A stretch of 64,000 nucleotides of DNA, taken from NCBI GenBank assembly GCA_000320545.1, contig ADNK01000135.1, positions 1 to 64,000 of the forward strand, written 5' to 3'. The stretch comes from Bigelowiella natans CCMP2755 (Eukaryota > Protista > Cercozoa). Under the pieces are notes generated by a model. It saw only the letters and a list, made by a program, of their open reading frames with translations, was not told where the DNA came from and ran no database searches. A program made the translations under genes and the position numbers. Every line of letters begins with the position of its first letter. Within the stretch, counting starts at the first letter, position 1. Positions 2,935 through 63,186 of this stretch are shown here, piece after piece.

Positions 2935-3324
2935 GGGAGGGGGGGGGAGGGGGGATATATGTGTGTTGCCTCATATCCATACAATCGTGACCTTTGAAGG
3001 CGTTTCTTACGGTGCGTTGGAGGAAATGGAGAAATCGCTTGATAAGGTCAGCATCAGCATCATCATCATCATCATCATCGCCGTCGTCATCATCATGATC
3101 ATCAATCTCTTCTTAGTCGTAGCAATCCCTAACATGCTCTTCACCATCAATTTCTCTTGCCGTTTCACTGTCTTCAGATGTCAGATACAGAGCTCATCGA
3201 CCTAGTAAAAAACAGTGACCCCGAGATGAATAGCGACAACATCGGGGAGGGCGGGGAGAAGGAGGAGGAGGAGGAGGAGGAGCCTCGCGTCTCCGTTGTG
3301 ATCGATTCCAAGCAGGACCGATAG
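1..3324 (+). CDS. Potassium channel, probably two-pore-domain/TPK-like; 3' part of a multi-exon gene whose 5' end probably lies upstream of the window
   Basis: Exon 1243-1276 (FFDAVYFSFVT) splices GT..AG to the exon at 1429 (VSTIGFGDMVPET), giving a pore helix plus the K+ filter TIGFGD. Further small exons are flanked by GT/AG (e.g. ~258-290 VINKFIVMMTG, ~395-450 YVLEFFTEEHKKHMFGQG, ~629-657 FNWFMALTL). The last exon MSDTELIDLV...SKQDR ends at TAG 3322-3324. Confidence 0.75.
205..3090. repeat. Dense intronic microsatellite cluster: (AC)n, (AT)n, (AG)n, (TTG)n, (CTA)n, (GAT)n, poly-C/G
   Basis: Directly visible, e.g. (AC)n(AT)n ~465-539, (TC)n ~585-615, (AT)n ~910-948, (CTA)n ~1629-1659, (GAT)n ~2797-2829, (GA)n ~2886-2930. 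Confidence 0.95.
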
Positions 3325-30665: not shown

Positions 30666-31439
30666 ATGTCCAGAGACTTGCTTCGGGGGGCGTCGAGGCT
30701 AGTGGATCAAATGTAGCGACAGGAGTAATTTATCAATCATCAATGCTCTTATGACATGCAGGCTTACATCATTTCAAGCAAAAAAAATGATACCCTTTGC
30801 TCGGAGGCTGGAAACCATCGCCCATTATAGTCGGGGAAGTCTGCCATGGTTCTCTGTCTGCCCCTTCCCTTACGTTGGCGGGTAAAGGGAATTCTACTTA
30901 TTTATCAGGGAGGATCAAAATGCCGGCCTAGGTTTATCAAAAGAGACAACATAAAATCATTGTCGCACTTATATTTTTGAATGCGTTATTAAGTAATACC
31001 GTTCGAGTGGAGAAGAGAAACTCTTAATTCACGCACGAAGTGCGCACAAAGTTACCATAAAAATTATAGGCAAAAAAACAAGCTGAATAAGTCTTAGATA
31101 GAGTAATATTCCCAGAACAAAAGAGCGTAAATCGAGAATCGATTCACCTGAAATCAATATAAAAAATTCTTGCGAATAAATCCTATAATTATTGTTCCAG
31201 AAACAGTCTTAATGTTCGTGGCCATTCTACTCGTACGACTAAGGATTTTTTTTGTAGCCGCTAAATATTGTTGTCGCAGGAGCATCAGCACAAAACCTCC
31301 CGGACGGCACGCTCATTGACGCACTCCGATGGTGCATCCGTCGCAACTAGAGAATGATGCATCCGCATTCTGTGTAGATCATGTTACAAGTTAGAGTTCA
31401 CCGAAGTAGACCTTTCTAAACCTATCTAGATCTAGATCT

Positions 31440-40579: not shown

Positions 40580-41700
40580 AAATTTCGACCAACATCTTGG
40601 AATGGACATGCGGATCAACCAATGACAATCGGAATCTCCATTGGAATCCATCCATTCATTCATTTTAGCTGTGCCATCGGAAACATTCATTTCCTCAATC
40701 AACCAGCAGATGGTTCTTTTCTGCCTGCTGGCTTGGTGGTCCTTTTGTTTCGCAGGGAGGATGGAAGTGATTGCATGAGCAGTTGCTGGCACTTCTCTGA
40801 TTCTGGTGGGTGATCCTGTCAACACAAGCTGCGTCGTGAGATCCTAGAACGTGCATCGAGATCTCTAGATCTGTGCGCATCAGCTGCGTCCCACATCCAT
40901 CCACATCACAGTGCTAGAGTGATTGATGGCTAGATGAATCCTGCAGCCTCGTTCTGACCCAGCAATCCAGCTAGCTAGCTAGCTACCAGTCTAGCAGTGA
41001 CACATGGTGCATGCAGGTGCAGCAGCAGTCATGCCATGTGTGCGAGAACATGACCTGACATGTAATTGATCAAAGAGGGTTCAAATTGACATCCGATTGT
41101 TCATTTGACGCTGCAATTCGCAACGCTACGCCATGCTAGCAAGCATGCTAGCATGTGCATGGCGTCTAGCACGTCTAGACGTGTGCAGCACATCAACCAT
41201 TTCGCTGAATTTTGGGTTCGTGTGCGGTCAAATCATCGCATGAGTGTGCATGCATCAATCCATGCTAGCAAGCATGTGGAAATTCAGGCACATTTCTAGA
41301 CTTCTTGTAGTTGTGAAAACATGCGTGTACACAGAAGTTCGAAGAACACATGCATGCGACGAAGACATTGCTAGATTGGTACATGCTAGCATGTGTGTTG
41401 CACGCGTGTGCACGTGTAGAGACTTAAGTCTCCATGATGCACCAGATGACCAGGTCAGGTGTGGCATCAATGGCATGTCTAGACGTGCAGCTGGGATTCT
41501 TCAAAATACAAGCGCATGTGCCATGAACACTCAGCGACACAAGTGCCATGAACACTTAGCGTGCATGTATAAGCATGTTGTTTGGCGTCGTGTTTGTAGT
41601 GTGATGATGATCTAATGACAATCTAGCAATTTTGTAAAATCAATGCATGCGTGCATTGTATTTGGCGATAAAAACATTACAAGGGAAGCATAGCTGTAGT
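40580..41700. other. TpA-depleted, TGCA/CATG/CTAG-rich intergenic island
   Basis: Manual count over 40801-41520: 26 TA, 21 of them in CTA/TAG context (17 CTAG). Abundant gcatgc, tgca and catg. Confidence 0.85.
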
Positions 41701-41753
41701 AGATGATTGAGTGTAGTCTGGTACACGAACTGCTGGTCTCTTCAGCTAAAGAT

Positions 41754-44700
41754 CTATTTTGGTTTGAAGCAGCGATCTAAACTATCAATGAGTACTTGCG
41801 TATTCTTCATGACCTCATCTAGCCCACTCGGAGCCTTCCCTGTCTCTGTGCCTTCCAAAAATCCGGTCAATCGTGCCTTAGCGCCATCTAGTCTAACTTG
41901 AAGCTCTGCGAACTGTGCCCCGAGGTCTTCCAGGTTTCGAAGAGATGCAAGCATCTTGTTGATGTTCCCACTTGCTTCCTGAATCTTGGCCTGCATGCCG
42001 CCAATCGCATCGCGGAGGGTCGACAGCTGCTGCGTTGCCGCTAAGAGATCCGCTGTAGATGATTGTGATGATGAAGATGGTGATTTCCCTGCTTCTTTCT
42101 TCTCTTCTCCCTTCTTTACTTCAGTCGTTGTTGTGCTGCTGTCGTTCTTTGGCGCAGCCGCTCCTTGATCACTAGCATCCGATTGAGTCTTTTTCGTCTT
42201 TTTCACTTCCTCTTGACTAGGAGATCGTGATGGGGTTGGGACTTTGTAGGAAGGAGCATCGACCTTCAGCGGTAATGAAGACGGAGAAACAGAATGCAGT
42301 TTCCCGCTTCGATGGGCTGAGAACCATTCGTGAACAGGTCGGTACTGCTCGTCTGGAGGCGCATGCTTGAACTTTCTGGCTCCGAAGTTGATTCTGACTG
42401 TACCCATGGAACTGGTAGAGAGCGCTGGGATGAGTCCCTTCTCGAAAGAGATGTTTTCAAATGCCACTGAAACCGTACCTTTCCCGACTCCCCATGATCC
42501 GTTGAAGGAGAACTGGACAGTCTTTGCATCAACATCCAGCGCGCATCCGATGATGTCGCCCTTCTTGAACCGGGTGCCGGACTTCACTGGACCGCTCCAA
42601 AGGCGTCTTTTAGAATCATGTTTGAGCTCTGGGAGGCCGTTGATTCCATCGGTGACACCCCATCCCCAACTATGGGCATCATCTCCCACACCCCTCTTCG
42701 TAATAGAACTACCAAAGAAGAACGAGTCGCACCAGCCGATTGTCATCACAGCGCCACCCTGTTTTCCAGATAACTGTTCCAGCTTGGCCTCATAGTACCA
42801 CTTCCCCCTTGTGAGACTGACACGATCCGCTACGATGCTCGGGTAGTGGGAGGATGCGCCCACCGTTCTACCATTGATGAGGGCCTGTGAGTAACCACTG
42901 CTCGCTCGTAGAGGAATGCGGTCTAGCTCCGAAGAGGGGCGTGTGTACTGCGAAATCGATCGGCTCAGCCCTGGCACTGCCAATTCCTTCAGGTCATCAT
43001 GCTCCTCTGATTGCAGCGTCGCCTTCGATGGCGACACAAGTGATGCCGTCGCAGCGGGATTGTAGAGCTCGAGCCACTTGGCGATGGAAAGATACCCGGG
43101 GGGGCACGCTTGCGCGAAAGGAGCGGTTCCGAAGTTAACCGTCACTGTGCATGAGTTGTTGAGGGTAATTCCAGGGGCGAGGCCACCGATGAACTCCATG
43201 TTCTCAGCAGCAGCTCCAAGAGGATCACCATTCTGCCAGAAACGGCACGACCTCGAGTCAATATCAACTCCCACACCGATTATGTCGCCAGTTTTCCACA
43301 TCTTTCCATACGGATGCTGCCCGTTGAACCAGAGGCAGATTCGCTGCCCGTCGTAGCCCCAACTGTGCTTATCGTCTCCCACACCAACCCCGTCACCAGA
43401 ACTGGCATAGAAGTGGAGATCGCACCACCCAATCTGGGCAATCCCAGCTCGCTTCAACTTATACTCCCAGTACCATTTTCCTGAGGTCAGCAAGCAGCCC
43501 TGTAGCACTGCCGTGGGGAACGCAGGACGTGTATTCACAATCACATCCACGGTGTTATCCTTGTGGTACTTGATGCTCATCTTTGCATCGCCAGTGGTGG
43601 GCTTCAACTTGCCGAAGAGGGCGCCTGCATTGAGCGCATGTATCTGCTGCATCTTGTTTCGTGCCCAGGAACGAATAGAGCGGCTACCATCCGGTGCAAC
43701 ATGCCGCCATGGTCGCATACCGAAGTTGACTCGGAACTGGAACGCCGACTCGAAGGAAATAGCTGGGATGATATGCTGCTTGAAAGTCACATTTTGGAAG
43801 GGCGCACCGACAAGTACACCGTTGAGGTAGTAGGAGATGGTCATCTTGTCCCTGCTCGTGATCTCAGCTTTCACGCCAATAACGTCGCCGGTGCTCCACT
43901 TCGGAAGACCAGCATCAGCCGATTCCTTCCCGTCGTGGATAGCAAGCTGCCTGAGGCCGTCATAGCCCCAGCTGTTCTTATCGTCACCGACGCCATGCGA
44001 CGTTGAGTAGTTGGGTCTGAACGCCGCATCAGCCCATCCCAGGCATCCACGGCCTGCTGTGACAACGGTGACCTCGTAGTAGTACCTCCCAGACTGAATG
44101 AGCACGCCACGAGCACAAAGTGTCGGCCGGTAGCCTGGCCGCGTGCTGACGAGGCCGTCATCGTGGAAGTAAGCCATGCCGCCACTCGCCAGCGACATAC
44201 TGCCCAGAGCGCTCAACTCGGCATATGACATATGCGCGAATTTCTCTTCTTCCTCGCCTACACTATCGAGTGTCGTCGTCGTCGCTTTCGCGTTCTTCGC
44301 GGAGGCCGCTGCGGAAGGCAGAAGATTCAGGGGAAGGGCTTTGCGACGCTTCTGCGATAACTTGCCCGGGTTTAATGCGCGGAACAACTCGCCTTTCCCA
44401 TCCTCTCCTTTTGAAGCAGAGGAATATGCGCCAAACCTAGTCGCAAATTCACGATAGTTGAGGTAGCCATCCTGACTCGAGTCGGCCTGCCTCAAGAGCT
44501 GCGCGCATTCCTCCTCACTCAAACCAATATTCAGCTTCATCAGCGCGTTTGTGAGCTCTTCGCGGCTGAGCCAGCCATCGCCGTTAGCATCAAACTTCCT
44601 GAAGATATCGAAGAGAGACATCTTGCCCTTGATCACCGCACAGGTGACTCTGAGGGCTAGGTCTCGCATTCTCATCAAATGTTTCTCGTCTGAGTAGGAG

Positions 44701-47700
44701 AACACCTGTGCGACTGGCATGCCGTCCCACTTCGTACGATCACGACGCCGCGCGCTCACCATGTTGTCAAAGACTATTCTCCTACGTGACTCAGGGGCCG
44801 ATGAAAGCGCCCTGAGCACGCGAATGATACCGTCATCATCGAACCACATCTCATTATCGAAGAAGCGAATGCATTGCCTTCCATCTTCAAAACTGCTTGT
44901 TTGCTGCTGCTGCTTCCCACCACCGCTAATGTTACTCTGAGAGACCTGCTTTGCCATGCTCGTCGCCAATCCTGGAATCTCTTCCTCCTTCACTCCAGCG
45001 TCTTTTAGCTGACGCGTGTACTTTTCGACTAGAAGTGCGAGCTCCGATTTATTGATACCGGTGCTTCCTGAGGACTCTTTGGCTGCTGCCGCTACTGCTG
45101 CTGCCTCCGCTGCCTCTTTGGACGACGCGAGCAAGGAGAAGAGTTCCAGTCCATCGATCGTTGTCATCGACACAGAGGTGCCTTCGAGGCCCGGTACACC
45201 ATCCTCTAGTGCCCTTTTAAGGCTTTCCGCCTCGGCGAGCGAGATTGTCACACAGTATTCTTTAGGCGGAGGAGGAGGGGGTTCCAGTTTCTCCTCATCT
45301 TCCTTTGCCTTTGCTTCCTCGTTACTGGCGGCTTCTTTCTCTTTCATCTCGGCCACTGCCTCGACATAAGCAGCCGACATCCAGTCCGCATCTTTGCCTT
45401 TGACCTCCCTCACCTCCTTGGCGCCCTCAGTTATTTGCGGTCGCCAGGAGATTAGCACTGATGCGTTCTTCATGCGACGCGCAAGATCCGACCGATGCAG
45501 CAGAGGCGCAAAGTTTTCTGATAAGAGAATAGACTTGGGAAATGGTAGTCCAGGCCCAGTTTTCTTGTTGAGGGAGAATGTGCGTAATGGGTAAAAGACC
45601 CTCGGGATGAGCTTACCAGCGTTGGCGAGATCCTCCTTATGCCACACGACGGCTGCCTGCGACGCCGAGGCATAATTTATGCGGACCTTCTCGATCACCT
45701 GTTTGTTCTCCTGCTCCTGCTCTTTTTCCTGCTCCTGCACCATTTCGGTGTCGAATTCCAACGTGTTGGCAGCCTTTTCCTCCGGCGAGTCTTCCTCATT
45801 GCCCACAGCACCTGTTTTCTTCTTGTCGCCACTGCCTCTCTGGCTGAGTTCCTCAGTTTCAACCTCGTTCAGAATGTCCTCAACGACACGCATCTGAGCC
45901 GGGTCAGTCAGGAAGTCACGGCGAGCTGCTACCTGCTCTCTTAGCCTGGCTGAGTACTGCACCTTTGTGGGCGGTTTCTCAGAGATGTCATGGTCGAGCG
46001 GCTCTCGGAATAAGGCGATGCAGCGTGTGGCCCATACTGGATCGATATCCATGGTCGCCTTCTTGCCGTACGATAGTTCCAGGGCAAATCTGAGCTTTTC
46101 TTCATCGCTCATTTCGGCGACTGGTTTACGTCCCGCAACGACAGTGGAAGAGCCAGCCTTTCTACCAGCACCAGCACCAGCAGCTTTGTTTTTGGAATCG
46201 CCAGCCTTTTTCTCAGCAGCACCATCCTCAGTGCCCACAACCGACCATGTTGCTGTGCAGCTACTTAAATCGGCTGGTTTTGCTGCAGCTCCTTCTCCTC
46301 CTGTAGCCGCTGGTGCTGGTGTTGAAGCAGACGACCCTGCTGCTCCTCCTCCTCGGAAGCCAAGATCAAACACAGTCATTTTCTGATTTCCATACTGAGA
46401 GCCAACCACGTCTTTGAGTTCTTTCCCCTTGAATTGGATTTGTACTTTGGCACCTTCAGGCAACTTGCCCTCCACGCGTATCTTCTCTCGTAAATCAGAG
46501 ATAAAAGTTAAAGGCGTGCACGATATCTTAAAAGACGTCGTCTGTCCCTGTGCCTCTGCCTTTACATCGTCCCCTCCTCCTTCCTTCGTCTCCTCTCCTT
46601 TCTTCTTCTCCTGTTGCTCCTTCGTCTGAGCCGAAGAGGTGGAAAGAGCGACAGTGATATCAAAGGCTTCTTTTGGGATAGTAATGCCGCAGGAGGTGAC
46701 AAAATCGGTGAGGCCCTTAATCTTGGCTTCAGGGTCGTTGCCAAATTGCGACATAATCATGCTCAAGGGCACCGGCAGCTGCGTCTTGGAAGTCCTCACA
46801 CTTTTCACGATAAGGCGAAGATGCGCTTGTTGCTCATGCCCCTTGGCCTCGAGCTTCTTTTTCTTCTCTTCGAGTTCTTTCGGATCGAGAATCTCCACGC
46901 CCATTCCCTTTGCTATATCTGCAAGTGCGCCTACCCCTTTGGCGAGCGAGCCTGCTTGGGCAATCAGGTCTTGAGGTGCGATTGGTAGCTGTTTGCCGGA
47001 GGCGCGAATGGAAATCAGAATCTGATCTAGTCGCTTCTTGGCTTCTTCATTCTCCTTTTTCTTCTTCTCAGCTTCACGATCCGCGTCTGTAAGCACTGAG
47101 TGCTCTTTAAGCGTCAATTGAATCTCCTTTTCGTCTGTAATAGCCCGCCGGAAACGTGAAGGCAGCAGCTCGCCCGCTGTCGCGACCGAGGGCGCCGCGC
47201 TCTCGATGAGTGAAACCCATGCCTGTCGCCTCCATGCGTTGTTGAGGAGCTGCCCGCAGAGTGCCAGGTGCTGTAAGTTCTCTGATCTCATCGAATTAGT
47301 GGTGAGCCACGCCACAACATCGCACAGAATATTGCCGGTATTCGACGCCTTTCGAATCAGCTGGCGAACTTCACCTACAATCAACACACATAGCGTCTGT
47401 CCCTTGGCCAGCCCACGGAGCCTGTAACAGCCTTGCTTGTAGTCTCGGAAAGTCATGTCTTTCCCAAGGGTGACAGCAGCCTTAGCATCCAGCGCCTGCT
47501 TGATATCCATACCAGTCGTGTGCACCTGGTCGTAGAACGTGAAGTAGCGCTCGGGGGAAACACCGCAGCGGCTGAGCGGAACAGGGCGGCCGCCAGTCCT
47601 ATCCACAACCACCTTTCGATCCGATTCGTCAAGATAGACGCACGCGTCTACACCCAGCAGTCCATTCTTGAGGAGAAACCTGGCTACTTGCTCGTTGGTC

Positions 47701-50700
47701 ATGCCCGTGATCAGAGCGCCGGTGTCAATCAGCGCGCGGTACGGCGTTGGTCTACCAGGGCTTGCCACCTCAAGCAGCAGCGTCTCCACGCTCCAGTTGC
47801 CCTGAATATACTTGGACGTGACCACATGCGGGTCGGTCAGCACGCGCAATATCTTGGCCTCAGAGCCGGGCTCGTAATGGCAAGGCCGAAGTTCCTTGGG
47901 TAGTAGATCCGATGGCGTGCCGCTAAATCCCAGTCTTAGCCCGAAGATCACGTCGCTGCCGAGATCAGCACCACTGGCCCGCAGCTTGGTGGCCTGGTGG
48001 CGCATGACGCGGTCGAAAACCTGCTCCCTGAGGAAGTACCCTACAGAGTCAGGAAGCGTGGTGATAGCGCGGTATAGCACTTCGAGTTGCTTGTCGTCCT
48101 GGTATTGGAAAAGCTCCAGTGGTAACACTTCGTATCCCTCATCGTCGTCATCAATAGCAGCAATCTTCTTCTTCTTTTGTTCTTTGGCTCTCTCTCGCTG
48201 GTCTCTGGCTAGCTGTAACCACTCCTGGAACTTTATGCGCGAGGCTCTCTGCACGTAGGGCCCTTGCTCTGTAGCAAGCTTCTCCTTGAGCTGCTGAGCT
48301 ACAGCACGTACGTCGCGGCGTCTGAGGCCTTCATATCTATAGGCCAGGACGGAAAGCCCAATTTGGATCTCTGGGTGAGCAAACTCTGCTGCACGCGAGG
48401 GCACGTCAAGACCAATGAAGGGAACAGCTAATAGCCGCCGCGCCGCTGATATTTCCGGAGGTTTTCCTTCCATGAGCGCCCATTTGTCGATGTGGTGCGG
48501 ATGCAGCAAACCGTAGGCCACACGGTTGATCTTGGAGATACAGTGAGGGAGGAATGAATTAGTCCAGTCGCGGGCCAGGTTGAGTAGCTGGATCGACTTG
48601 GGAGAAAGCCTGCTCTCCGCCATTTCGTATGCTTCCTTTACTAATAACTTCTGTGATGCACTGCTGGTGTTATCTAAGATGTATGCGAGCATTAGCTCCT
48701 GAACGCGGCTTGAGTTAGAGAATGAGGAAGCCGGTTCCGAGCCATCATCATCATCATCACCACCACCACCATCGTCATTACCACCATCATCGTGTTTGCC
48801 ATCTTCTTTCTCCCTTCTCTCCTTCCTCTTTGATTCGGAGAGCACACGCTTCATCTCAAGCTCTGTGCCAGTGGCCGTGGGGGAGGAGGCGGCGGTTTCG
48901 ATGTCGGCCTGAATGCACGGCTGCGCACGGAGCCAAATCATGGCCCACCGCCCAACAGCCATCTTGAGATGAGACTGGTAAAACGACTTTTGTAAGACGA
49001 CAGGGTGGGGGCTGGTTTGCACGACCTTCTGCTCCTCCCCCTGTCGCATGGCATTGGCGATGTCTCGTAGGACTGCAAGCGAGTCGGTATCAGGCCGGAA
49101 ATCAGGCAAGGGCACTCTGCCCCCCGACACGTCGTAAAAGAAAGCCTCGAGAAGATGCATGGGAAACTCCCATCGCTCAGGGCCTAGCGGAAGCTTCTCC
49201 TTCGGTCCGATAGGAAAGTTCAGCTCTGACTTGAGCGGATGCAAGATTAGGTCAACTTCGTCCAAGAGAGCCACCCCACCCATATCTTTGCCGAATAGCT
49301 TGAGAATGCGCTTTATGGCGTCTGCCTTGAGCGCATTGCTTCTCAAATCCTTGGCTAAGACCCCAGAACGCTGCAGCTGTAGGCCAGAGCCAACACGTGA
49401 CTTTGGGAGCGAGAGAATTGGAGATGCCGCCTCCACAGACTGTAAAAGGTCCACGTACTTCAGCATCAAAGACTTTACTGCCTCAGGGGTCGTGCACACT
49501 ACAGCACGCTGCTTCCTCGCGCGATCCAGCTTCGTATACAGTGCTTCTAGCAGCTTAATCGAGTTTGCCGTATCCGAGCCACGATCGAAGTTAAACGTGT
49601 AGACAGCCTTGGAAATCACATTGGAGAAGACGTTCCGCATCACGCTGCGCGTTTGGGCAAGGAGTGCCTTGGGCACCACCTGCGACACTAACACGCGCCC
49701 GTTGGCGAGAAGTAGGGTAAGCATCGGGGATACAACGGACGTCTTGCCCGCTCCCATGATCATCTGTCGCACAGAACTTTGACGTGTTCTAGCGGATGCT
49801 AGGAACTGATAGATGATCTCGACTTGTCGCGGCCGCATCATGAAGCCCGCCATGAACTCGAATGCTAAGAATCTCGGGTCAAAGGTGCCAGTCGTGAGAG
49901 ACATCTGCGTGGTGTAGCCTCTTGAAGCTGTCAGCAACCCTGCTACATCCTTGGCTGTGTGCTCCATGATGTGCACCATGGCACCCAGCGAAGTAGACGA
50001 TTTCTTCCTGCCACCAGCACTTCCACCACCACCAGGAGCTGTACCATTGGCCCCACCACCCACTCCCCCTCCTACCATCTTCTGAGAGGGCATGGCTGGC
50101 TGGCGGTCACCGGTTGGGCTAGGCTTCCACAACTTAATCCCATCCTGATAGCAGCCGCGCCGGGCGAGCTTGAGAAGCTCCAGCGAGTTTGAGCTGTCCT
50201 GCAACCACGTTCTGGTTTTCTTCGCGTCAAACAGATGGAAGTGGAAGGCCACAGCCACAACGGCAGGCAAATGCCGCTCTGGGAGACCCTTTTCCTTGAC
50301 GTAGAGAGAGCGATCGGTGCTCGAAATGAGCTGCGATTCTTTGCGAAGGAGGTCCTTGGTCAGCGCCCTAGTTTTCGCTTCATCGTAGCCGCATTGCTTT
50401 GCGGCATGGAGCAGCATTTGGGGTGTGGGCACGAGGATTTCGTAGACAGAGCCTCCGCCTCTTAGCCAGCCTTCCTCCAGACGCTTGACGATCACTAGCT
50501 CAATACTGCTCTCGAGCTTCTTCACCACGTCCAACGTGCGATTGCAGTGGCTTAGTCGTGTGCATCGGAACAAAACGGCGGCGACGGCAGCCATCAGCTT
50601 CTCGATGTCGCTGCGTGAGAGGAAAGGATTTATGCGCTGCATGTCCTTGGCCTCGCGGGAGGACAGGAACAACGACGCGATGTGCTCGAAAGATGCGGTT

Positions 50701-53700
50701 GCACGTTTGCCACAAAACTTCTCCAGCGAATAGGCGATCAGATTGGTAGCGGCACCGTCTGCAGGTGCAGCTCTATCTTTCAACTCTTCGCCCTTTTTCT
50801 CCTTCGAGTCTTCTTTGGTGGCGGTGACGACATTTGCCATTTGCTCTACCAAAAAGGAGCCCTGCCTGATGGCATCGAAGTCTGCGCCACGAAGTTTTTC
50901 CAGAAGGTTTTTAAGTTTGGAAAGCTTCTCCAGGGCAGAACCGAGGATAGCAGCTGCTTGCGATCCGATCGTAGCGGTTCTTCTAAGGCTGGGAATAGCC
51001 ATTATCGGAAGAGGATTATCACCGTCAAAGGCTTTTTCTTCTTCTGCTTTGTGGGCATCATCTTCACCATTACCATCAAGCCCGGAGATTAGGATAATAT
51101 CCTTCCTGATGGCATCGAGGTGGTCAGGAGTGAGGTAGGCTAGACGTGGGCGCGTCTTTCCTTTGGCCTTTACGGCAGAGGTCTTGAGGTCGTGCTCCAT
51201 GAGCTTTAGCATCTTTCGTGCCACCTGTGACCGAGCCACGGGATTACTTGTGCTGACGGTGAATGGGAGTTTGGCGAGGATCGAGTCAGCGTTAGGATCG
51301 AGTTGGTAGGCGATATCCGAGCTGAAATCTATTGCTGAAAGCGGCATTGAGAAGAAGGCTTTTCGATCCCTGTCGCTCACGTGAAGAAGGTCGCCATCAG
51401 ATTGGTTCTCATCACCGTTCTGATTCTTTGCATCGAGGGGGAGGTGGCGCTGAGATGCCGAGCAGTCAGAGACCTCAGGGCGAGTGAGAATCTCTGCGTT
51501 GGCGGGTATGTGCGTCGTTTCATTGACTTCGGGGGGGGGCGGGAACTTTGGTGCGTGCATCTGTGTCTTGACATAGCGTGCAGCAGCCGTGAGATGGTCT
51601 TTAACCCACATCCCCAGCCCTGGATGCGAGTTGGTGGGACAACCCTCCTCGAGTACCGTGGATATCTTAAAGAATGGTAGTTCTGGGAAAGTCTTCTTGA
51701 TCTCGACCCCACGCTCGATGGCGTGGAGCAAAGGCCCTAGCATGCCATATGCGACCTTCGCGTCATCCGAGGGCGGCTTCTTGCCCATCTTGGTCTGCTC
51801 AAGATATTTCATCTGAACTAGCAGCTTGGTCAACGTGAAGCTATGCTGCGGGAAATCATGGTGCACGTCAGGCCATAGCAGCGGCTTCAGCGTCCCTGAG
51901 AGCATCTGGTAGAGCACAAGGAGGCCTCGTGACATCTTTGAGCCAGTAAGGCTATCATCAAATATCTCCTCGATCAATGTGACGAGCGCAGCGCCATGCA
52001 GACTACTTCCAGATGGCTGCGAGTATTTAAGGTAGAACCCGACGCCACGCTCAAGAACGGGCGCCATTTTTTTCACAGCTTGCACCACTTTGTCTTGCCA
52101 CAGAGCGCCTCCCTGCTTACTGCGGCAAGGACCGGCAGGAAATTCCAGCGCCTTACTGAGCCTTGAGCTTTGCTCGATGGCCTGTAGGTAGCGAAGGCGG
52201 TCAGGAGCGATACCGAGTTGTATCTCCTCGTCCTGGGTAAGTCTGCACACCACGGAGACGTGTGGGAACTTCTTCAAGTAGCCTTCCTTATCAGCTTTCA
52301 CCTTTACCGGAGGGGATTCCCCGCACCCTTTGCAAATGCAGGCAAGTCGCAGCCTGCATGCGTGTGCGTCAGGGTGGCTGTCCTCCTCAGTGTTCTTGAT
52401 CAGTGAGACTATCCATTTCTCCTCTTCCGTGAAGGCGGTATCCGTGGAGCACGTTGACAACAACTTAGACGCTGCAGCGTAGTCTCGCGCCATTAGCCTT
52501 AGCAGCAGGAGGTAGAAGGAAGCACTGAGAGAGCGGCTCAAGACGAATGTTCCTGACAGGTGAATGGGGTAAACATAGTAGCGCGTCTTCACCTGCTGTG
52601 ACCACTCTTTACCTCTTGAGAGCACCACGTGAGTTGAGAATGGGCACTGCTTGATCTTAGGTCTCGTGATACCATAGTTCGGTACCATAAGGAAGTATTC
52701 TTGCCGCGAGTTGTTAAGGACGACAGCATGAGGGATGGCGTTTGCGTGCTTCGAGAGGATGGAATCTGGACTTTCGGTAAGATATAGTCCATCATAGTCC
52801 AAACTAGCGAGCACCGACTTGCCGTCCTGCTCTCTTGTCTCAAATCGCGCCCCAAGGCGCGGGAGCTCCACAAGCGAGATCTCGCATTCCTCCTCGGTTT
52901 GTTTGGGGGAGGAGCGTGTCCACACCAGCACGTATGAGAGGTTCTCAATGCGAGTAAGCACCTTCTTTAGCCTATGCCCTAGACTCGAGGGCTGCGATCG
53001 TACAAGGTTCAGCAGCAACATTGGCTCTGGCAGAACACCGCCCCCCCCATTACTGCTACCACCATCACCACTCTTACTTTCCTTTTCCTTGCTCTTTTCT
53101 TCCTCCTCCTCCTGGCTAGTGCTGTCTTTTCCATAATATGGAATCCTGTATATATTAGCCACCCACTCGCCAATGCCTTCGTTCTCTAAGATAGCTTCGT
53201 CGTTGTGGCTCAACCCGGTGTAGCAGTCATGGGGCGGAACCTGGGCGAGTCTGGCTCCTGCCTTCCTCGCAGCATTTTCACGCACCGACTTCCACGACGC
53301 AGTAGGAGCGCTATCGACCGCTACATAGCGTCCGTTGACCTTAAGGACGCTCTGGATCTTGAGTGTCGCCACGATCACGGTGTTGGAATCTACCGTCTTC
53401 GAATCTGGCCGTGGGTAACCGCGGAGAATGCACGGCCCTGTTCTCCAAAACTGGTACTGCCTCGTGAGTATATCCGGGATAAGACCACTCAAAAACCTTG
53501 CTGGGATGTACTCCTCGTACTCACCTTCTGCTGCTTCTTCGTCTTCAGATGACACAGTGTCTCCCCACGCCTCAGCCTCCTTCTTGAGCTTGTTCTCTAA
53601 GTCCCTGTCGGATTTGGCGACAAGGCGGTTCCTGCGGATGACCACAGAGCCGACCGCATTGTTTGATAGCTTGCCAACGCCAGGCCGATCGGACATAGAG

Positions 53701-55227
53701 CCATCCTTGTTCAGAAGCCCATCAAACATCCCACCGCCTGCGAAACGAAGGCCAGGCTTGGCAGGATTGTCCCTGTCTCTCGGGTCTTGCTCCAAGTCGT
53801 GAAGGCAAAATCGCGAGTCCGATGAGAACACGCACTGGCGGTGCACACGTCGTCCACATTCGGCTAGGTAGTAGACAGTGAATGTCTTGTGCGTTCTGAA
53901 TGCCTGAACCTCGAAGAATCCGCCCGGGTGCCCCTTGAGCTCTTCCAAGTCTCCTTGCGGACTCACGTACCTGGGGAGTAGGAATGGTGAGTATAACCAG
54001 TAGCAAGAGCAAGGGCTTTATCAACACCATATGGATCATGTTAGGAACAAAAAGGGAGGGGGGCAGGGAGGATGAGGGAATCACGAGTCTTCTTACATGA
54101 GCATCTGGGCACATAGAGCAGGAGAGACGCCGCCTGTGACATTATCGATGCTGCTGCTGCTGCTGTCTCTGCAGGAACGAAGGCCCTGGGTATCGATCCA
54201 GACCTTTGGCCTGGCCTCCATTTCCATCTTATCGACGGATTGATCCAGTATGGGATCAAGGAGCTCTGACAGCCACCCAGCACTACCCGGGGAGTAGGCT
54301 ATGAACGTTTTCCCATCGTACAGCAGCTTCGAGGCGCTTCCTGGAGAGCGGCGCGGCATATTGAGGCACTTCTGCTCAGGTAGACCGCCCAGACGACCAA
54401 CAGCTTGGGTTGGAGTGCTGCTGCTTTCGGAGCCTTCGTTGTCCTTTTGTCCGTCGTCGTTTTGTGTCTTCTTGTCGCCACTGCCAGTAGTGATGGTAGA
54501 AGCAGCGTCGAGGCTGATGCTGCCAACAGCGGACATGTTCTGAGCCATCTCGTTGGAGACGATGGGAGTCCAGCTACCGATCTCGTAGACGTGCTGCCCG
54601 TGGACAATAGTCATCAGCTTTCGATTCAGGTTGTTCTCCACAATGGCGCAAAACAGCGATGACGACGACGAGGATGAGCCGGACGACTTGTCCTTCTTCT
54701 TCTTCTTCTTCTTCTGCTGGTGTTGCTGCTGGATCGCGATTAGATCCTGGGCTACCTCAAAGACGTCGGAAAAGTCGCTGTGGTTGGCGATATCGGTAGG
54801 AACCGGCATGAGCATACGATTTCTTAGATAAACCTCCCCTGTCTGAAGATTGACCTGTACCGTCCCCATTGGGTCACGATACAGCCCGACCGATTTATCT
54901 CGCGAAGACGACGACGACGCCTCAAGTTTCTCCTCTTTCAATTCCTTTGCGATCTTAGCCTTGATCTCCTTGAGGTTCTTGCGCAGGTATTGGCGAGCTG
55001 CTTCGAGGTCGTTCATGGTCTCCATGAGCGCTCTGAAAAAGGAGGGGAGCGATTAACGATTAGCAATTGTGATATATGGTATATCACATGATAAAGTGCT
55101 CCTGATTGTGATACAACACGTGGTTGATGATCTTCAATAGTGACGCCTCCTCTTTTGGTGTCGGTAGTAATGGTTGGATGTGCTGATGATGATGACGATG
55201 ATGGTAGTATTTGATAATGCTTCCTAT

Positions 55228-55260
<33 letters not shown>

Positions 55261-55480
55261 CTTTGAGCCACGTTAACGCCCACCGGCTGCTTATTTTCGT
55301 CCTGCTCTTGTGATAAAAGACGCGCCGAAGCTACAGAGACCGGGGCAGCAGCTGTGAGCCTAAAGCCCCAATCTTCCACCGAACGATCCGAGTGGAAGTG
55401 TACCACGAAGCTATCAGCAGGGATCACGAGGGGCGGCCGGCCCCCAGCACCTGACATTAATTATTATAATGATGATGATA

Positions 55481-55515
<35 letters not shown>

Positions 55516-58500
55516 AGCATTTGTTGTACGCTATCGTGGATTTTGTTGCGTGATGATCGTTGTTCTTCTAACCAACCTGGCCATTCGCCAGCAGCAGGGC
55601 CGGAGAACTTGCGCTCTTTCCCCCAGAAGCTGGTGCAGCTCTCATCTTTGTAAATAGTCACGAAGTCGGAATACTCCTCCGTCGCACACTTCTCATCAAA
55701 ATAGATCGATATGTAAGGGGTTCCTGGGAAACGAACAGTTTCGTAGTAATCGGTGAGAGGCTTGTAAGGATGTGAGGACTCGACGACTTTGGAGCAGATC
55801 AGTGGCTTGCTCGCGACAGAGGCCCACCCACGCCACTGAACCTCAGCCATCTCGCCTGGATTAGCCCTTTGTAGAGATACGGAGGCCACGCGTCCCAGCA
55901 GCTGGTCAAGCATGGCACTGTCCGCCTTCTGCGCGCAGTGGCAAATATCCGCACGACTCTTTTCGTAGATTAGGAACACGTCGTGGAGAGGCACCGGGAG
56001 CAGTGGGATTGCCTGCCCAGCTCGCTTCTTATCGCTCAGGTGCTGGATGACAAACTTCGCGCTCTTAGCCTCCGAGTGCCAGCTCAAGACGAAGGCGGAG
56101 CTACAACAGAGGTCGGAAACGGTTTTGGTAGACACCATGTCTTGGCTGCTCTCTTCCTTCTCAATCGTTCCTCGTATAGCATGCAACAAGGCTAGATGCG
56201 AGTGCATCTCCGTGGACCGCTCTACGTCGCCCGCCGTCTCACTCTCTACCAACCAACGGTGGAGAATTGCAGTGGCTCCGTTGGGGCCGAGTAGCCGCAA
56301 GATGCGGTTCTCCGTGCTATCCTTTGGCGTCTTATGGCATTGCCTAGCATGCCTGACGAAGGAAAGGATGAAATAAGTAATGCGTATGATTCTCATTAGC
56401 AGCGTCGCGAATGTTGAGGTGTAGTCCCCAATACACAGCTCAAGCGTCTGGCTGACGATCTTTGCAAGGGGCCCGAGGAGACTCCGAGGGGCGTTTTTGG
56501 CCTCTCGCATCAACACACCATGCGAGGTGCCCAAGAGAGGATCGCGCTGCTTGCTTTCGACTGGAATTTTGTCAATCTTGTTGAAGCTGTCAGACACATA
56601 GGCTCGAGGCTCAAACAGCACAGATTCGAAAATGTCGCGGAGCCACGGGTTCAGTAGAGCACCAACCCTCTGTTTAGCGAAGAACTCAAGAACCAAGGGA
56701 ATGGCAAGGTAGGGCGTTGTGAGATAGGTCATCAGCCTCTCTGACTCCTCCTCACTCAACGTGTCGCCGAATCGCTGCAGCTCCGTTTTCTGGAGCACGG
56801 CATCCTCGTCAGCATCATTCCGCGTGCCAAGTAGTGACAAGGAGGCTGGTGATTTCTGGGCATACCCAGGAGCAAATTTGATGTTGTGCTTCTCGTTGCA
56901 GATCGCCACCCTGAGCAGGGACACTGTCCCGTCGCGATTGCAGTCATGGAAATCCCACTTGGGAGTCGCCTGTGAGAGGTACCATAGCGACACGCTCCGG
57001 AAGGGAGCATTGCCAATTTTGAGGAGCGCTGCAGGCTCAAGGATGAGGCGGTGCAAGAAGATAACGTCGCGCAGAAGTAGCACCTCGGGCGCCTGGTCGA
57101 AAGCTTCACCCATGATCCACCGACTCTGTCTCTCTAAATCAGTCATCGCATCAGGGTTCTGCGCACCCCTCACGTGACCGGCGACCCTCCCCCGCTTCTT
57201 CCGAGGGGGCAGCGTATACATGAGTCCGCACTGGTCAAGAAGCTCCTTAACAAACTTCATCGTCGTGTCGTCCTCCTGTACCTGGAACGTGGGCTGCTTG
57301 TATTGTCCGGAGAATAAGCCACCGCGGGGTGGTTCTGGTTTCCAGGAAAAGAGGGCGGGGCTCTTGGAGAATGGCATGCGCTCGAAATAGTCGAAAACAC
57401 GGTGGCGCGTATCGAGAATGTGAGGATCTGTGAAGAGCATTCGGTCAGAGATCCGCCGGAGCTGATAGCCCTGGAACGACGTAAGGCATATCGAGTAGCC
57501 TTTCACCCCCTTGGTGCCGGCAATTGAGGCCGCATCCACTTTTGTACCACATAGGAGTCGAGCTACTACGTCGTGAGTATTTTTCTTCTTAGTTTTTGCC
57601 TCCCCTGAGGATTTCTCATCTTTTTTACCGTCAGGCACTGTCGTTCTCATTCGTACTACAGCATCAAAGACAGCGAGGATGGCCATGGAGGTCACAGCAC
57701 GGGCCGCCTCATCCGCACGATCGAGATTTGTTGACAGTGTTGCCGCAATGTAGTGAATCAACAATCCGTGGATGGCCTTGAGCACCGCCATACGCTCATC
57801 ATTCGTAGGGGTCGCGTTTGCAAAGGGGCATGTTGATTTCCGACTTGGATCTTCTTCCAAAGATGATTTCTCTTCAGTAGGCGCAGCTTGTGGCTTTGGA
57901 ATAGGGATTCTCATTGTAAAGACAGCCTGGATCAAGCACGTAATCTGATGGCAAGCAATGGAGCCTGCAGAAACAGATGTCTTTGCACGAAGGCGATCAC
58001 AGCGGTCCTTGGTCTCGGTCAGATAGCGCTGAATCGCTGCGAAACTGCGGGGCTGGCTATCGTCGTAAAGGTCAACAAACAGCTCAGGAACTGCCTCGGT
58101 CGGGCCGCCCTTGAGCCCATCAGTCTTTCTCTTATCCGCGATGAGACCAAATCCAGAGTAGCCGATATACTCGTCTGAAGAGCGCATATTCAGCTCGCCC
58201 AGGCGGTTCTGAAAGGCGACATCAGACTTGAGCATATTTTTGATAGTCTCCTGCACTGTTTTCACTTGCGTTCGTACGACTTGGAGACCTTTCGCGTCCA
58301 AAGAACCTCTCTTCAGCTCCTTAAGGGCGGCCATTGCCGTCTGCCTGCAAGCTACGTTAATCATGCGAACATCAGAGTCCTCGAGGAGGCCACTGCTGGT
58401 ACTGCTGTCCTTTCCATCAGCACATTGCTGATCCTTCATTGCTTTTAGGTCTGCTAATACGCGGTCGAGGTAGGCACAGCGGATTTGGAATAAGAACTGC

Positions 58501-59960
58501 TTTCTTTGCTTTTCATTGAATCCGTCACGCTTCATGAGGAATCGAAGTGTCGATAAGATGCAACGATAGTAGCAGGTTCCAGACCGCTGGATCGTCTCAT
58601 ACTCACCACAAAGATCGTCTTTGTCAGCGGCTTCCACAGCCTGTGCCAAAGGGCCGTTGGCAAGGTGAGGCAGGAGCACTTCGTACATTTGTTCAGAGTC
58701 GTTTTCCTTCTTGTGTGTGAGACGCAGTTTCCAGAAGAGGAACCATATGGCCGGGTCAAGAAACCTCTCTGCCTTAATTCCTTTGATAGTAATCGCAACC
58801 TGTGTTGGTGGGAGGGGAGAAGGAGAACAGGAAGTACTCTTATTATTGAGAATGAATGATGACACCGTCCCTTTAGTCTGTTCCTCTTTCGTATCAGATA
58901 CTTTTGATGTTGCTACCCACCTTATGCTTCTTTTTCGGGAACCACTTGTTGGTCGCGGGGTGGTATTCGACGCCTTGACCTGATAAGGTAGCCGTGCATG
59001 TTATTTGCCACGTATCAACAACGACTTGCACAAGTTTCAGGCTTTATACAAACGGAATAAACTCAGTTTTTTGCATGAGTCTATTTCCTTTCATAAATGA
59101 CAAAACCACCTGTGTTGATTACGCTGAAGTCGTAAGAGTCTTTGGTCTTCCACACCACGTGCATGATGGCGTGCCCACCACCCTTATCAGACCAACCGCT
59201 GCACACAGCACGCGCACATAAACACAAACACACACACACACACACACACACACAACACAATTTGTAGTGAGGAACACTGCCCATAGAGTGCCAGTGGTAC
59301 TTCTCAAGCACTGCAAACAGTTCTATTTTGTAAGTCATATCTACCCAGTTACAGCTAGCCTTTGGCCGTCCTTCATTTCCGTAAGTCTTCGTTGAAACTT
59401 CTTCACGAAATCTGGAACACATTTGTGATCCTGAAGAAACCAAAACCAGTGGTGATAAGAATAGATTCAATAGTACCCGACCGATTCGTTGCACTAGAGA
59501 TAAAAATAAGGAACCAAAAAGTACAAGAGTGGTAGAAGAAGAAGAAGAAGAAGAAGAAGAAGAAGAAGAAGAAGAAGATGTGTATATTCATATTCGTGTA
59601 ACCCTACCGAGACAGCATCTTTCTCGGCGTCAATTTCGGAGGCTAGTACCAGATCGGAGACAATTCGCTCAACCTGATGGTACATTTGTGAGACATTTAA
59701 TGCTTACACTAGATCTATGCTTTCGATTCGATCGCCTCTCTGTTCGGAAGTATTTACGAGCAGCTGTGCCACAACGCAATTTAGAATGATTGTTACCTTT
59801 TGCAGGTCCTCCTTTTCCATGAGAGAGAGCTGGCCTTTTCGTTCTTTAACAAGATCGCGAATGATCTTAGCGAGGGTGCGGATGCTTGGGGCTGTTTGCC
59901 CCCCCTCTAAGTCTGTGTTCTGGATATGAGGATCCCCGAATTCCCCTGCGAACGCACCAT
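41754..59960 (-). CDS. Giant multidomain protein (~5,700+ aa): putative Cys protease, CUB-like, DUF3638/DUF3645 SF2-type P-loop NTPase, ubiquitin-like, UIM, EF-hand pair, 3x SPRY, coiled coil; true start not resolved
   Basis: ORFs 55464-58865, 55257-55457, 54093-55025 and 41754-53966 are linked by GT-AG introns (e.g. ...QML-M|YVSPQG; EWPG|AGGRPP). Motifs: QMIMGAGKTSVVSPML, LLDEVDLILHP, LLAVPFIGLDVPSRAAEFAHPE, ALIDTGALITG, FYDQVHTTGMDI, DANGDGWLSREE / DSSQDGYLNYRE, and three G(R/K)xY(Y/W)E...GVGDDxxSWG...GD(V/I)IG repeats. Confidence 0.85.
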
Positions 59961-60049
59961 TTCGCCATATCGCACCAAGAAAATCCTTCCCAGGTCTATA
60001 TGGATATCATTTAAATACTTAGTCATCAAGGAGACCGCCTTATAATACA

Positions 60050-61300
60050 ATGAAAATTATGAGACGCATCTTGAGGAAGCGCAGTTTGAGGAGTAGGTAT
60101 ACATAGAGAATAATAGTCAAAAGCACTCCAAAGTTACAAGATGGTTGCTTGTAGAAAATAGATAGACAACGTTTCATCGAATGAATGGAGTATCTTACTT
60201 GCAGCAAGATGAAAGCTGCTCATGCCTGGGCATAGTTCAGTATGATTGCCTCGGTAAGGCGAGTGCAATAGCAGCTCTTCCGAGGTGTTTATTGGGAGCT
60301 ACAGATTCTTTTAAGTAATTTGTCTGTGTGGAAGGAGAACGTGATTCGGGTGACGACGCAAAGCAGACACGGAAAAATGATAACTTCTATTGCAGTAAAT
60401 AATTGATATGGTAATTTAATAGGTCTACTGCAATGCAGCCCTTAGTAGGTGAGATTCGACTGAGGAGATACTTTTTTCATTCGAATGCTTCTTTTTCTAC
60501 CGACGGCGTCTCTCTCACATTAATATCACCAATCGGAGTACCATCGTCCGAATCCCTCCAAAAATGTCATATGTATGTATACACTCGATAAATTGATGGA
60601 GGGTGGAGGAAGGAAAAGGGGCTAACCGGAGGAAGGAAGAGGGGTAATAAGATATCCCCACTCTACTGGATCTATCCTGGAATCTGCGTAGATTTCGAGA
60701 AGCCATTTTGCATGCGGTTTAGCTGTGTATTTCCATTGTCGCAGCACTAAAATACATGCCTTTTTTGCGAAAAGTTTTCAGTACCTGGGTCATATAAGCA
60801 AATTGGTCCCCATTCACGACCTGCGACAAAGCACCGAAGAACCTAAATGCTGCAGTTTTTGTAGTTCGGAACTTCGAATTCCAACATTCTTGCACAATCG
60901 GTTCCTCTCTGGGAACCCCTACCCAGACCTGCTGTGTGTGCACAACAGCCTTTTCCACAGATCGAGACTATCCTTCCTTGTTCTCGTCTGTTGGCGTCGT
61001 TTGTAACAATTATTTATTTCTTATCCAGCGTCTGTCTGAACTGGCAGTCGTAATAAATTATCTGGCAATCCCCCTCATCGCCGTGATTCCTTCGAGTAGT
61101 ACCTCCCTCCGAGAGGTTGCGAGAAAGACACGCTGTCCTCCAAGAATTTTCCATCACTGATTTTTAGCGATGTGGCAAGATGTCCATCGTCTACAGTATA
61201 AAGGAAATATATGTTGCAGTTCTTTCATCCGGCGCAGATCTTGCCTGACAATCTGCACAACGGCATTTCTCATGATGATGTCCGTCACAATATCGAGGAA
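60050..61300 (-). CDS. Possible hypothetical multi-exon gene (or extra 5' exons of the giant gene)
   Basis: Open, splice-site-flanked segments such as MEKAVVHTQQVWVGVPREEPIVQECWNSKFRTTKTAAFRFFGALSQVVNGDQFAYMTQ and KPHAKWLLEIYADSRIDPVE. The structure is not resolved. Confidence 0.3.
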
Positions 61301-61376: not shown

Positions 61377-63186
61377 ATGAGCGATGTGAAACTCCCGACT
61401 CTACCGCGCTTCTCTCGTCCAAGTATGCTCGCTTCTACCTTTTGGCATTTGAAAGCATTTCCCCGTATTCTCGCTTCCTCCCACTCGCTTTTGCTTTGTA
61501 TTTATTCTGTGTGAAATGTATATAGTTATAACAAACCGAAACTACCATGAAGCTATGCCATGATATTACTTCATCTCTCACCATAATCGGCCACAAAAAC
61601 TCTCATTTGATTGATTTCGTCCTCCTGTTCAGGGTTGAACTTCACATCGCCGAGGCTTCTCGATGCTGTAGCTGGAACTGTCGCAGGTAGGCACCATAGA
61701 TAATATAACCGCAGTTACATAGGTCAGCAAATTTGTTTCTAAAAGGTGCAGTATCCTCGACGGTAACATGTCCCTTGGATGTTTTGAAGACTAGATTGCA
61801 AGTTCAAAGTCGCCAGTTCAGTGGTAAGAATAAATGTATGCTAATCTTGGTATTATACGAGAGATAAGGCGAGAATTTGAGAAGATTACACTCTTTAAAA
61901 TTCTCATTTTCCAAGGTAACGTGGGTATTATTCACGGAGTCACGCGAATAGTGGAGAAGGAAGGGGTTCGCGGCCTTTATACTGGAATCAGGTTTGGCAT
62001 TAGGAAATATCAAATTGATTTTCAATTGCCATATTAGGTATTTAATTTTCAGGCCAACAATTATCGCGCTTCTACCCAATTGGGCAGCATACTTCCCTGT
62101 GTACACCGCTGCAAAGTCTTACTTATCCGAAAAAATGCCGGATCGTCCTTCAGGTTTATCACGATTCTAATTCTCTACAACGAGGAAAAGAGTTCATGTT
62201 GGGATGTCCGTATTTTTGGCCTATATTACTTTAGCTGTCAACTCCCTCGCAGCTTTGACCGGAGGCGCTGCAGCACTTGCAGCTTCAAATCCGTTTTGGG
62301 TAGCGAAGACGCGCCTGCAGACACAGGTTCTAGCTCTGTCCATAGCGAAGAATGCTAAGGGGGTGCCCTACAAAGGCCCATTCGACTGCATAACCAGGTA
62401 TGTTCATAAAACAATATTTATGTTTTTCATTGCATCGCGAACTGAAACTTATTTTATGTGAACTTACGAGGATTGCCCGTGAAGAAGGGTTTGGGGGACT
62501 ATACAGTGGCGTCGCTGCCTCCGTAACTTCGATTTATGCTGATCGACATTCCTTGTCTAATCGTTTCCATATTAATTTTAAGATTTTTGGCCTGGCGCAC
62601 GTCGCCATTCAGTTCCCTGTATATGAGTTATTAAAGCAAAAGTTTGGTGAATGTGATGGTACATACTCAATTACTGCCTTTCCCAATACACTTTCAATTG
62701 ATCAAACTATATTTTTAGTGTCATCCTCCTCGCAAGATGGGCGCTTCTCCTCGATGCGACATCAGATCTCGTCTCTAATGACAGCTTCTGCATTGTCCAA
62801 GCTGGTCGCAAGCACGTGTACCTATCCCCATGAAGTTGTTCGATCACAGATGCAGGTATTATTGTTCATCGGATGGTAACACTGCTCACTAAAAGAACTA
62901 GTTTGGATGAATGAGAGTTTCAACTTCCCTCCACCTCCACCTTACTGCGATAGGTTGCTGGGATCAGTGGCTTTGGCGGTCTTGGGCGGGCATGCAAGCG
63001 TGTGTTTATGGAAGACGGGTTGGCAGGATTTTACCGGGGGTGATATTAGTCGTAGATAAATGCAGTAGTTTTATAGCATTATTCATCAACCAAACCTAAT
63101 TCTTCAGATACACGATCAACCTGGTTCGGACTATACCAACTGCAGCTGTCACTTTACCTACGTATGAGGTTTTCACGAACATATAG
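61377..63186 (+). CDS. Mitochondrial carrier (SLC25), NAD+/folate-FAD transporter subfamily (NDT1/SLC25A32-like)
   Basis: Three carrier signatures (CPLDVLKTRLQ, NPFWVAKTRLQ, YPHEVVRSQMQ) and subfamily motifs PTIIALLPNWAAYFPVY and GLAHVAIQFPVYE. Stop TAG at 63184-63186; the first exon MSDVKLPTLPRFSRP splices in phase. Confidence 0.9.

Follow-up and report, generated by a model that had tools for sequence, protein, structure and literature searches.

We studied a giant gene of the cercozoan Bigelowiella natans CCMP2755 located within positions 1 to 64,000 of contig ADNK01000135.1 (assembly GCA_000320545.1); this whole stretch of 64,000 nucleotides is called the window, and all coordinates refer to it. 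A preliminary description, made from the sequence before any database search, had proposed one giant ubiquitin-linked NTPase at this place, possibly serving innate immunity or protein quality control. The locus indeed held a single minus-strand gene with 10 coding exons, running from an ATG at 60233 to a stop at 41754 and encoding 5,699 amino acids (aa) in one spliced frame; its start lies 273 nt beyond the boundary first given (59960). From its amino end, the protein presented a head with a predicted cysteine-enzyme fold, a CUB-like module, a long middle region, an ATPase motor whose predicted shape resembles that of SecA, a slot of variable content, an EF-hand pair, three SPRY domains and a coiled coil. 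This layout suggests a calcium-tuned enzyme that might thread ubiquitin-tagged proteins (see below).

Three long open reading frames (ORFs), at 41754-54017 (4087 aa), 54093-55052 and 55464-59000, together with several short exons, were joined by GT-AG introns. The coding span comprised 60233-60199, 59995-59797, 59673-59608, 59430-59345, 59198-59110, 58979-58921, 58799-55577, 55450-55261, 55032-54097 and 53970-41754, and its spliced translation was identical at every residue to the database protein P0001 (B. natans model Bigna1 85176). The splice evidence consisted of contigs of three runs, labelled as RNA by guess and presumed here to be so. Six of the nine coding introns were listed as joints in these contigs, two more were visible as adjoining pieces within one contig, and the ninth (59199-59344) was deduced from the record length only. 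The 5' untranslated region (60234..60627, minus strand) contained one intron (60324-60626), with its joint found in three of four runs, and the 3' untranslated region (41593..41753, minus strand) ended at a poly(A) site, where 33 reads of the raw-read run X21 carried a T-run in front of 41593. Two contigs of 10,251 and 7,171 nt covered the mRNA and none spanned it entirely; both broke at a micro-repeat (48737-48786) that lies within the uninterrupted 4,087-codon frame, so that the RNA does not split the locus into separate genes. The giant gene is real, intact and expressed. Its protein had no signal-peptide-like start and a single moderate hydrophobic window. The GC content was 0.50-0.57 over the gene (42001-59000) and 0.37-0.49 elsewhere in the window, and CTT, GT, GTA and ATC microsatellites filled several of its introns in the same range.

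The head and the motor

The head (about aa 15-345; 58299..59990, minus strand) was delimited by modelling and conservation. Its model, built from 26 sequences, had a predicted local distance difference test score (pLDDT) of 91.8. In a VIA fold comparison against 48,161 chains, it matched the Legionella proteins AnkH (6MCA, Z 17.8, 283 residues aligned) and AnkD (7EW8, Z 16.3, 264 residues aligned), followed by a next row at 7.6. The putative catalytic residues His138 (59173), Asn157 (59116), Gln249 (58589) and Cys254 (58574) showed the clan CE-type order, His-Asn-Cys with a Gln before the Cys. The head sequences GGHA, NTG and GTCYYR correspond to rGHa, D/NRg and GNCSWANV in AnkH, whose domain is described as XopD/ULP1-like (clan CE) and also RavZ-like (PMC6712400). 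The predicted head fold and the catalytic set are well supported, and a clan CE link would run through AnkH. The protease proposed at first was thus kept as a protease-like fold with an intact set of residues and refined to a probable AnkH/AnkD-type His-Asn-Cys domain. No Pfam peptidase matched the head, PDB searches with head profiles gave nothing meaningful, and PF20255 (DUF6606) had no match, either on aa 1-370 at E values as high as 5 or on the long ORFs at E values as high as 0.1. A weak ESM Atlas lead pointed to the YopJ acetyltransferase family (0.80).

UniRef names many relatives of the protein 'ubiquitinyl hydrolase 1', a label that we take to be automatic and not derived from an assay. 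An OTU-type deubiquitinase, considered on account of that label, was rejected: His precedes Cys in the head, and no OTU family of Pfam matched.

The motor (aa ~2985-3885; 47201..49901, minus strand) includes DUF3638 and is followed by a long scaffold helix. It showed two RecA domains and the motifs Q, I (MGAGKT), Ia, Ib, II (DEVD), III (FSGT), IV, V and VI (QGCYRLRG) of superfamily 2 (SF2), with MIMGAGKT at 49763, LLDEVD at 49268 and the RecA2 motifs at 47930-47417; the motif AVPFIG lay at 48428. Motifs II and III are separated by an insert (47996..49211, minus strand) that carries DUF3645 and is a putative counterpart of the SecA clamp (PPXD). A search with the core recovered 309 relatives among 1,730 candidates, and all counts over 120 below refer to the relatives listed; motifs I, II, III, IV, V and VI were kept in 120, 119, 117, 110, 110 and 117 of them, respectively. 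The motor is a complete SF2 motor, not an immune ATPase of the AAA+ or STAND kind; ATP hydrolysis is predicted from its motifs. The NTP-driven core of the preliminary description stood in this respect, as its SF2 motif set is complete, and was narrowed to a motor of probable SecA shape.

The motifs followed the order of SecA at comparable distances (I-Ia 24 vs 23 residues, III-IV 65 vs 63). When aa 2950-3900 were modelled from 28 sequences (pLDDT 82), the first Foldseek match was the SecA structure 5EUL (TM 0.37/0.45; root-mean-square deviation (rmsd) 9.5 over 953 columns), whereas the helicases of RIG-I-like receptors (RLRs; RIG-I and MDA5) aligned at an rmsd above 20. In the VIA comparison, SecA structures filled the top 14 rows. 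Substrate-engaged SecA aligned over 520 (6ITC) and 507 (5EUL) residues; the remaining full-length SecA structures reached 387-408, and DEAD-box or RLR helicases about 330-335. Helix 893-935 of the model fell in the range aligned to SecA and outside that aligned to DEAD-box proteins, so the model has a long scaffold helix after NBD2, as in SecA. The SecA clamp arises by rotation of the PPXD and binds the polypeptide backbone, according to the portion of PMC6599042 consulted. The clamp-closed form of SecA gained some 110 aligned residues over the others, which favours a polypeptide over a nucleic acid as the substrate, and the DUF3645 insert would overlay the closed clamp. A by-eye resemblance of DUF3645 to the PPXD loop was dropped, as it scored nothing in a sequence test. 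No SecA family matched in the Pfam scan, and a PDB sequence search with the motor returned nothing meaningful.

Accessory modules, relatives and neighbouring genes

The assigned domains all exceeded their Pfam cut-offs: the three SPRY domains (E 2e-53), DUF3638 (4e-31; PF12340, 108.5 bits vs a gathering threshold of 31), EF-hand_7 (2e-12) and DUF3645 (1e-9; PF12359, 38 vs 25). They had been named in the preliminary description, and the Walker A, DEVD, DUF3645, RecA2, ubiquitin-like, UIM, EF-hand, SPRY and CUB motifs lay where it had placed them. The CUB-like module (aa ~1175-1300; 55308..55811, minus strand) is split by an intron and contains VESSHPY at 55784 and HFHSDRS at 55400. The query sequence alone matched nothing, but a profile of 13 members reached the CUB domains of MASP at 4e-5, then those of Kremen, C1r/s and PCPE, and Pfam CUB matched three of the 13 members; the assignment is therefore supported through the profile of relatives and not by the query itself. 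The module was present in 22 of 137 relatives. It recurred in P0293, P0310, P0284 and P0285 with APC10/DOC and ankyrin, MIB/HERC2, LamG or SPRY domains, and its occurrence in APC10 and MIB/HERC2 proteins suggests an intracellular class of CUB linked to ubiquitin scaffolds.

The long middle region (aa ~1300-2985; 49902..55307, minus strand) matched no Pfam family and consisted in part of family-wide blocks, such as aa 1630-1830, 1940-2250 and 2600-2950, found in 96, 110 and 99 of 137 relatives. Beyond the motor, the slot after the scaffold helix measured 488 aa, vs a median of 130 aa in 97 of the 120 relatives. Here it holds a weak ubiquitin-like domain (Ubl; 46344..46541, minus strand, motif position ~46532) and a UIM-like helix (46071..46112, minus strand), whereas P0003 and P0004 carry Ubl-like sequence and the B. 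natans paralogue P0043 (Bigna1 76726) a jacalin lectin domain; the slot looks like a swappable recognition site. The Ubl scored 0.016 with Pfam Rad60-SLD, 0.17 with ubiquitin and 0.047 with the Ubl of OASL, and was 32% identical to that of the Chlorarachnion orthologue. An 'RGGG' after the Ubl was rejected as a ubiquitin-like C-terminus: the orthologue is without it, and in the alignment it precedes the last strand. The UIM-like helix, 78% identical in the orthologue, was recognised by a regular expression made for this analysis, which matched three of 120 relatives and none of 200 shuffles, and it had no Pfam UIM match. Both elements are weak, lineage-specific features.

The EF-hand pair (44436..44618, minus strand; loops at 44591 and 44483) has a canonical first loop and a less canonical second one, both retained in the Chlorarachnion orthologue. 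Three SPRY domains of RyR/RanBP9-like type follow (42330..44140, minus strand; cores at 44090, 43481 and 42806), 59-69% identical to those of the orthologue; for SPRY, CUB and motor together the range was 59-83%. The predicted C-terminal coiled coil (41757..42056, minus strand) rests on a heptad pattern with hydrophobic residues at 61% of a/d positions vs 40% overall, and among the relatives it appeared only in the orthologue.

The core relatives listed came from rhizarians, stramenopiles, apusomonads, choanoflagellates, kinetoplastids, dinoflagellates and metagenomes, and 88 of the 120 had the head. Named examples are Chlorarachnion reptans P0002, Thecamonas trahens AMSG_03687, Criblamydia sequanensis CDR34502.1 and entries of Hokovirus and Harvfovirus. 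The DUF3638/DUF3645 core also occurs in environmental Chlamydiae, where three named members, from Criblamydia, Parachlamydia and Waddliaceae, carry DUF3638 and keep the catalytic set intact, and the head is recognisable in giant-virus entries of the Klosneuvirinae type, several of them named DUF3638. Two B. natans copies were among the 120 matches listed, and a search of the genome contigs with P0136 found no relative.

Catalytic residues could be scored at all four positions in 80 core relatives, including the query (the other 40 of the 120 were partial or unscored). The set was intact in 20: 15 of the 17 with a CUB module and 5 of the 63 without one, the latter group being inflated by near-identical oomycete rows. 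In a search based on the head, and so biased towards the query, 80 of 108 scored sequences were intact. The relatives with CUB and SPRY formed a 29-row clade in a FastTree phylogeny with one outgroup pair; in an IQ-TREE analysis of 46 rows, a fully supported split set them apart from the other 24 eukaryotic rows, and they became paraphyletic with a different outgroup. The query belongs to a CUB/EF-hand/SPRY subgroup that mostly retains the catalytic set, while most other eukaryotic relatives have lost it; since the tree offers one independent pair, co-evolution of CUB and an intact set is not shown. Counted from a hand-compiled list, UBA, NZF or PUB domains were carried by 56 of the 120 relatives, most of which belong to other subgroups and have dead heads. 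Accessory domains varied widely among relatives and were mainly interaction modules (SPRY, SH3, PH, FYVE, fn3 and Tudor).

Several single relatives departed from this layout. The paralogue P0043 has an intact catalytic set and an N-terminal NZF finger. P0003, P0004 and P0014 carry insertions of ~160-400 aa between the His/Asn and Gln/Cys halves of the head, with the set kept where scored, and in the fragment P0127 a SAM domain directly follows the His/Asn half. In many relatives, mostly dead-headed where scored and including P0050, P0239, P0252, P0261 and oomycete sequences, a thioredoxin-like domain, often with UBA, lies just past the head. In P0216, which has no DUF3638, the head comes behind thioredoxin and UBA domains, at aa 2484-2996; two adjoining paralogues may have been merged here. 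P0016 continues from its SPRY region into a NACHT/STAND NTPase with WD40 repeats, which could be a genuine fusion of NLR type or the product of gene calls run together.

Proteins with DUF3638/DUF3645 are widespread (the head profile alone gave 3,210 clusters at 50% identity) and are named only in passing in the literature searched, where no functional study was found; subscription papers and supplements lay outside that search. Papers that name it term the function of the DUF3638 family undefined (PMC12615304), record DUF3638 as the mark of an expanded microsporidian family (PMC5423893) and list it as a polymorphic candidate effector of clubroot (10.64898/2026.10.14.759018). The family is catalogued but unstudied. 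No description was found for the subgroup with CUB, EF-hands, SPRY and a mostly live head, and, as first supposed, the searches made returned no characterised protein with this combination of domains.

Elsewhere in the window, Pfam matches indicated a weak ion-channel match at 1243-1734 (plus strand), a glutathione S-transferase at 6739-7311 (plus), a BRCA2 repeat at 8667-9140 (minus) and a BRCT domain at 25061-25831 (minus). A frame of 892 aa at 28020-30698 (minus) matched the nucleoporin Nup84/Nup107 (Pfam 7e-43). Exons of a protein with G8 and CEMIP beta-helix domains occupied 33009-36095 (minus; Pfam 1e-26, 2e-37 and 4e-7), with a PT-repeat frame upstream at 37167-37745, and a mitochondrial carrier match at 62394-62879 (plus) belonged to a gene divergent from the giant gene.

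A possible threading enzyme and its alternatives

We propose, with confidence somewhat short of even, that the protein is a calcium-tuned, ATP-driven enzyme that threads ubiquitin-tagged proteins. In such a soluble machine, the SPRY and CUB domains and the Ubl/UIM slot would select or dock tagged substrates, and the SecA-like motor would clamp and pull the polypeptide, with cycles of ATP opening and closing the clamp so as to unfold, extract or feed the chain. Cys254 of the head could then cleave an isopeptide or peptide bond, in the chain or at a ubiquitin-type tag, and calcium on the EF-hands might tune the ATP cycle. Such an enzyme would likely work in the cytosol, in protein quality control or remodelling. 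Where the head is dead, a relative would retain the motor and use the head for binding only. A more specific form of this proposal, a eukaryotic, channel-free, calcium-regulated SecA-type translocase in a single chain with a new His-Asn-Cys class of isopeptidase, is doubtful as a whole. We are just as hesitant about its wider extension, in which this translocase could stand in functionally for p97 plus deubiquitinase, would be found in environmental Chlamydiae and giant viruses too, and would have a head akin to that of the Legionella core effector AnkH.

Several results weigh against the threading proposal. On the side of the motor, the comparison of its core with E. coli SecA was not significant (hhalign probability 0.2%, with the profile no better than shuffles), nor was any sequence or profile similarity of the DUF3645 insert to the SecA PPXD. 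As the fold matches while the sequence and profile comparisons do not reach significance, the motor appears shaped like SecA but lies outside the SecA family. The gap in VIA Z was also small (17.8 for SecA vs 16.6 for DEAD-box helicases), and the motor model ends at aa 3900, short of any two-helix finger or wing domain. As for the head, Foldseek against the PDB gave no match at E 0.001, and ULP1, XopD and other proven isopeptidases were not in its top 50 VIA fold matches. The consulted passages on AnkH report that its triad is required in infection, yet that proteolysis went undetected in vitro (PMC6712400), and those on AnkD report a GTPase with His268-Asn290-Cys361 and with Gln356 five residues before the Cys (PMC9757750). 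Of the scored relatives, 60 of 80 were without the full set, so the family can do without cleavage. The link to ubiquitin, finally, is weak: the UIM-like helix and the UBA, NZF and PUB domains of the family are consistent with it, while the Ubl was marginal in four tests (6 of 500 shuffles scored equally well), the UIM-like helix was confined to close relatives, and both elements are missing from most of the CUB/EF-hand/SPRY subgroup.

The behaviour of AnkH and AnkD also suits an alternative in which the motor threads a polypeptide and the head is no protease: a Cys-dependent GTPase switch like AnkD/LegA15, or a YopJ-like acyltransferase that would gate or mark substrates. AnkD, reported to hydrolyse GTP, comes second among the fold matches, the ESM Atlas lead points to YopJ, and in the available part of its report, Ceg10, a triad effector earlier taken for a protease, turned out to be an acetyltransferase (PMC12773746). 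A regulatory head would also fit the frequent loss of Cys among relatives. We nevertheless consider this rather unlikely. GTP hydrolysis by AnkD, as far as the consulted text goes, runs through Gln356, Cys361 and Lys367 (PMC9757750), whereas a simple offset from the catalytic residues, without superposition, places Thr158 and Leu260 here at AnkD Arg291 and Lys367; and His138 is kept together with Cys254 in the subgroup, while the mutation H268A had little effect on AnkD (PMC9757750).

Slightly less probable still is a scaffold or holdase gated by ATP and calcium, whose clamp would bind and release partners without processive threading and whose head would serve self-processing or binding. Pushing of the SecA type needs the two-helix finger, which the motor model does not reach; most eukaryotic relatives combine a dead head with an intact motor, and the accessory domains are chiefly interaction modules. 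Against such a scaffold, all helicase motifs are conserved, including the coupling motifs III and VI, and the model best fits the substrate-engaged state of SecA.

The innate-immune sensor or effector of the preliminary description, in which an SF2 motor would sense foreign nucleic acid or pathogen surfaces with SPRY and CUB as receptors and the protease head as effector, is improbable: RIG-I and MDA5 do appear among the fold matches, accessory domains vary, P0016 joins a NACHT-WD40 region, the head occurs with DUF3638 in protist-infecting Chlamydiae and giant viruses, and the excerpts on microsporidia (PMC5423893) and clubroot (10.64898/2026.10.14.759018) hint at host-parasite conflict, but RLRs align over ~330 residues vs 520 for SecA and so fit the motor worse, Pfam scans found no CARD, TIR, RING/RZ or other E3 domain and no RLR C-terminal domain, the RyR/RanBP9-like SPRYs, the CUB and the motor are well matched in the Chlorarachnion orthologue at the identities given above, and B. 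natans has two copies among the 120 listed. The quality-control role named beside it fits better.

If the threading proposal is true, protein threading of the SecA type is not restricted to membrane export, and the ubiquitin system includes an unrecognised class of cysteine enzymes. The B. natans member makes a good test case, being expressed, with a confirmed exon structure and catalytic residues kept in both enzyme parts. Its head of 350 aa is compact and well modelled, and the chemistry of this head would also shed light on the unexplained AnkH triad.

Comparison with known systems

Compared with other giant DUF3638/DUF3645 proteins, the query has the same head, middle blocks and SF2 core, with both Pfam models above cut-off, and adds the Ubl/UIM slot, CUB, EF-hands and SPRY domains in a subgroup that mostly keeps the catalytic set. 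With SecA (6ITC, 5EUL) it has in common the order and spacing of SF2 motifs, an insert between motifs II and III and a long helix after motif VI. It differs in identity (12-14% in the fold alignments), in a far larger insert (427 vs 164 aa from motif II to the position before III) and in that its motor sits in a protein of 5,699 aa with an enzyme head and no known channel partner. The head fold is common to Legionella AnkH/LegA3 and AnkD/LegA15 over the residues aligned above, including the His-Asp/Asn-Cys order, at 11-14% identity; those proteins are small ankyrin-fused effectors without a motor. Clan CE proteases (ULP1/SENP, XopD and RavZ) and YopJ have the His-Asn-Cys order and the Gln before Cys in common with the head, but are absent from its top 50 fold matches.

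RLRs bind RNA through domains that are absent here. The likeness to RNF213 and p97/Cdc48 is that of large, ATP-driven, ubiquitin-linked machines. The ATPases of RNF213 and p97 are AAA+ rings, and RNF213 also acts as an E3 ligase, whereas the query relies on a single SF2 motor and lacks a ligase domain. p97/Cdc48 works with separate deubiquitinases; by analogy, what takes several chains in that system may be united here in a single one.

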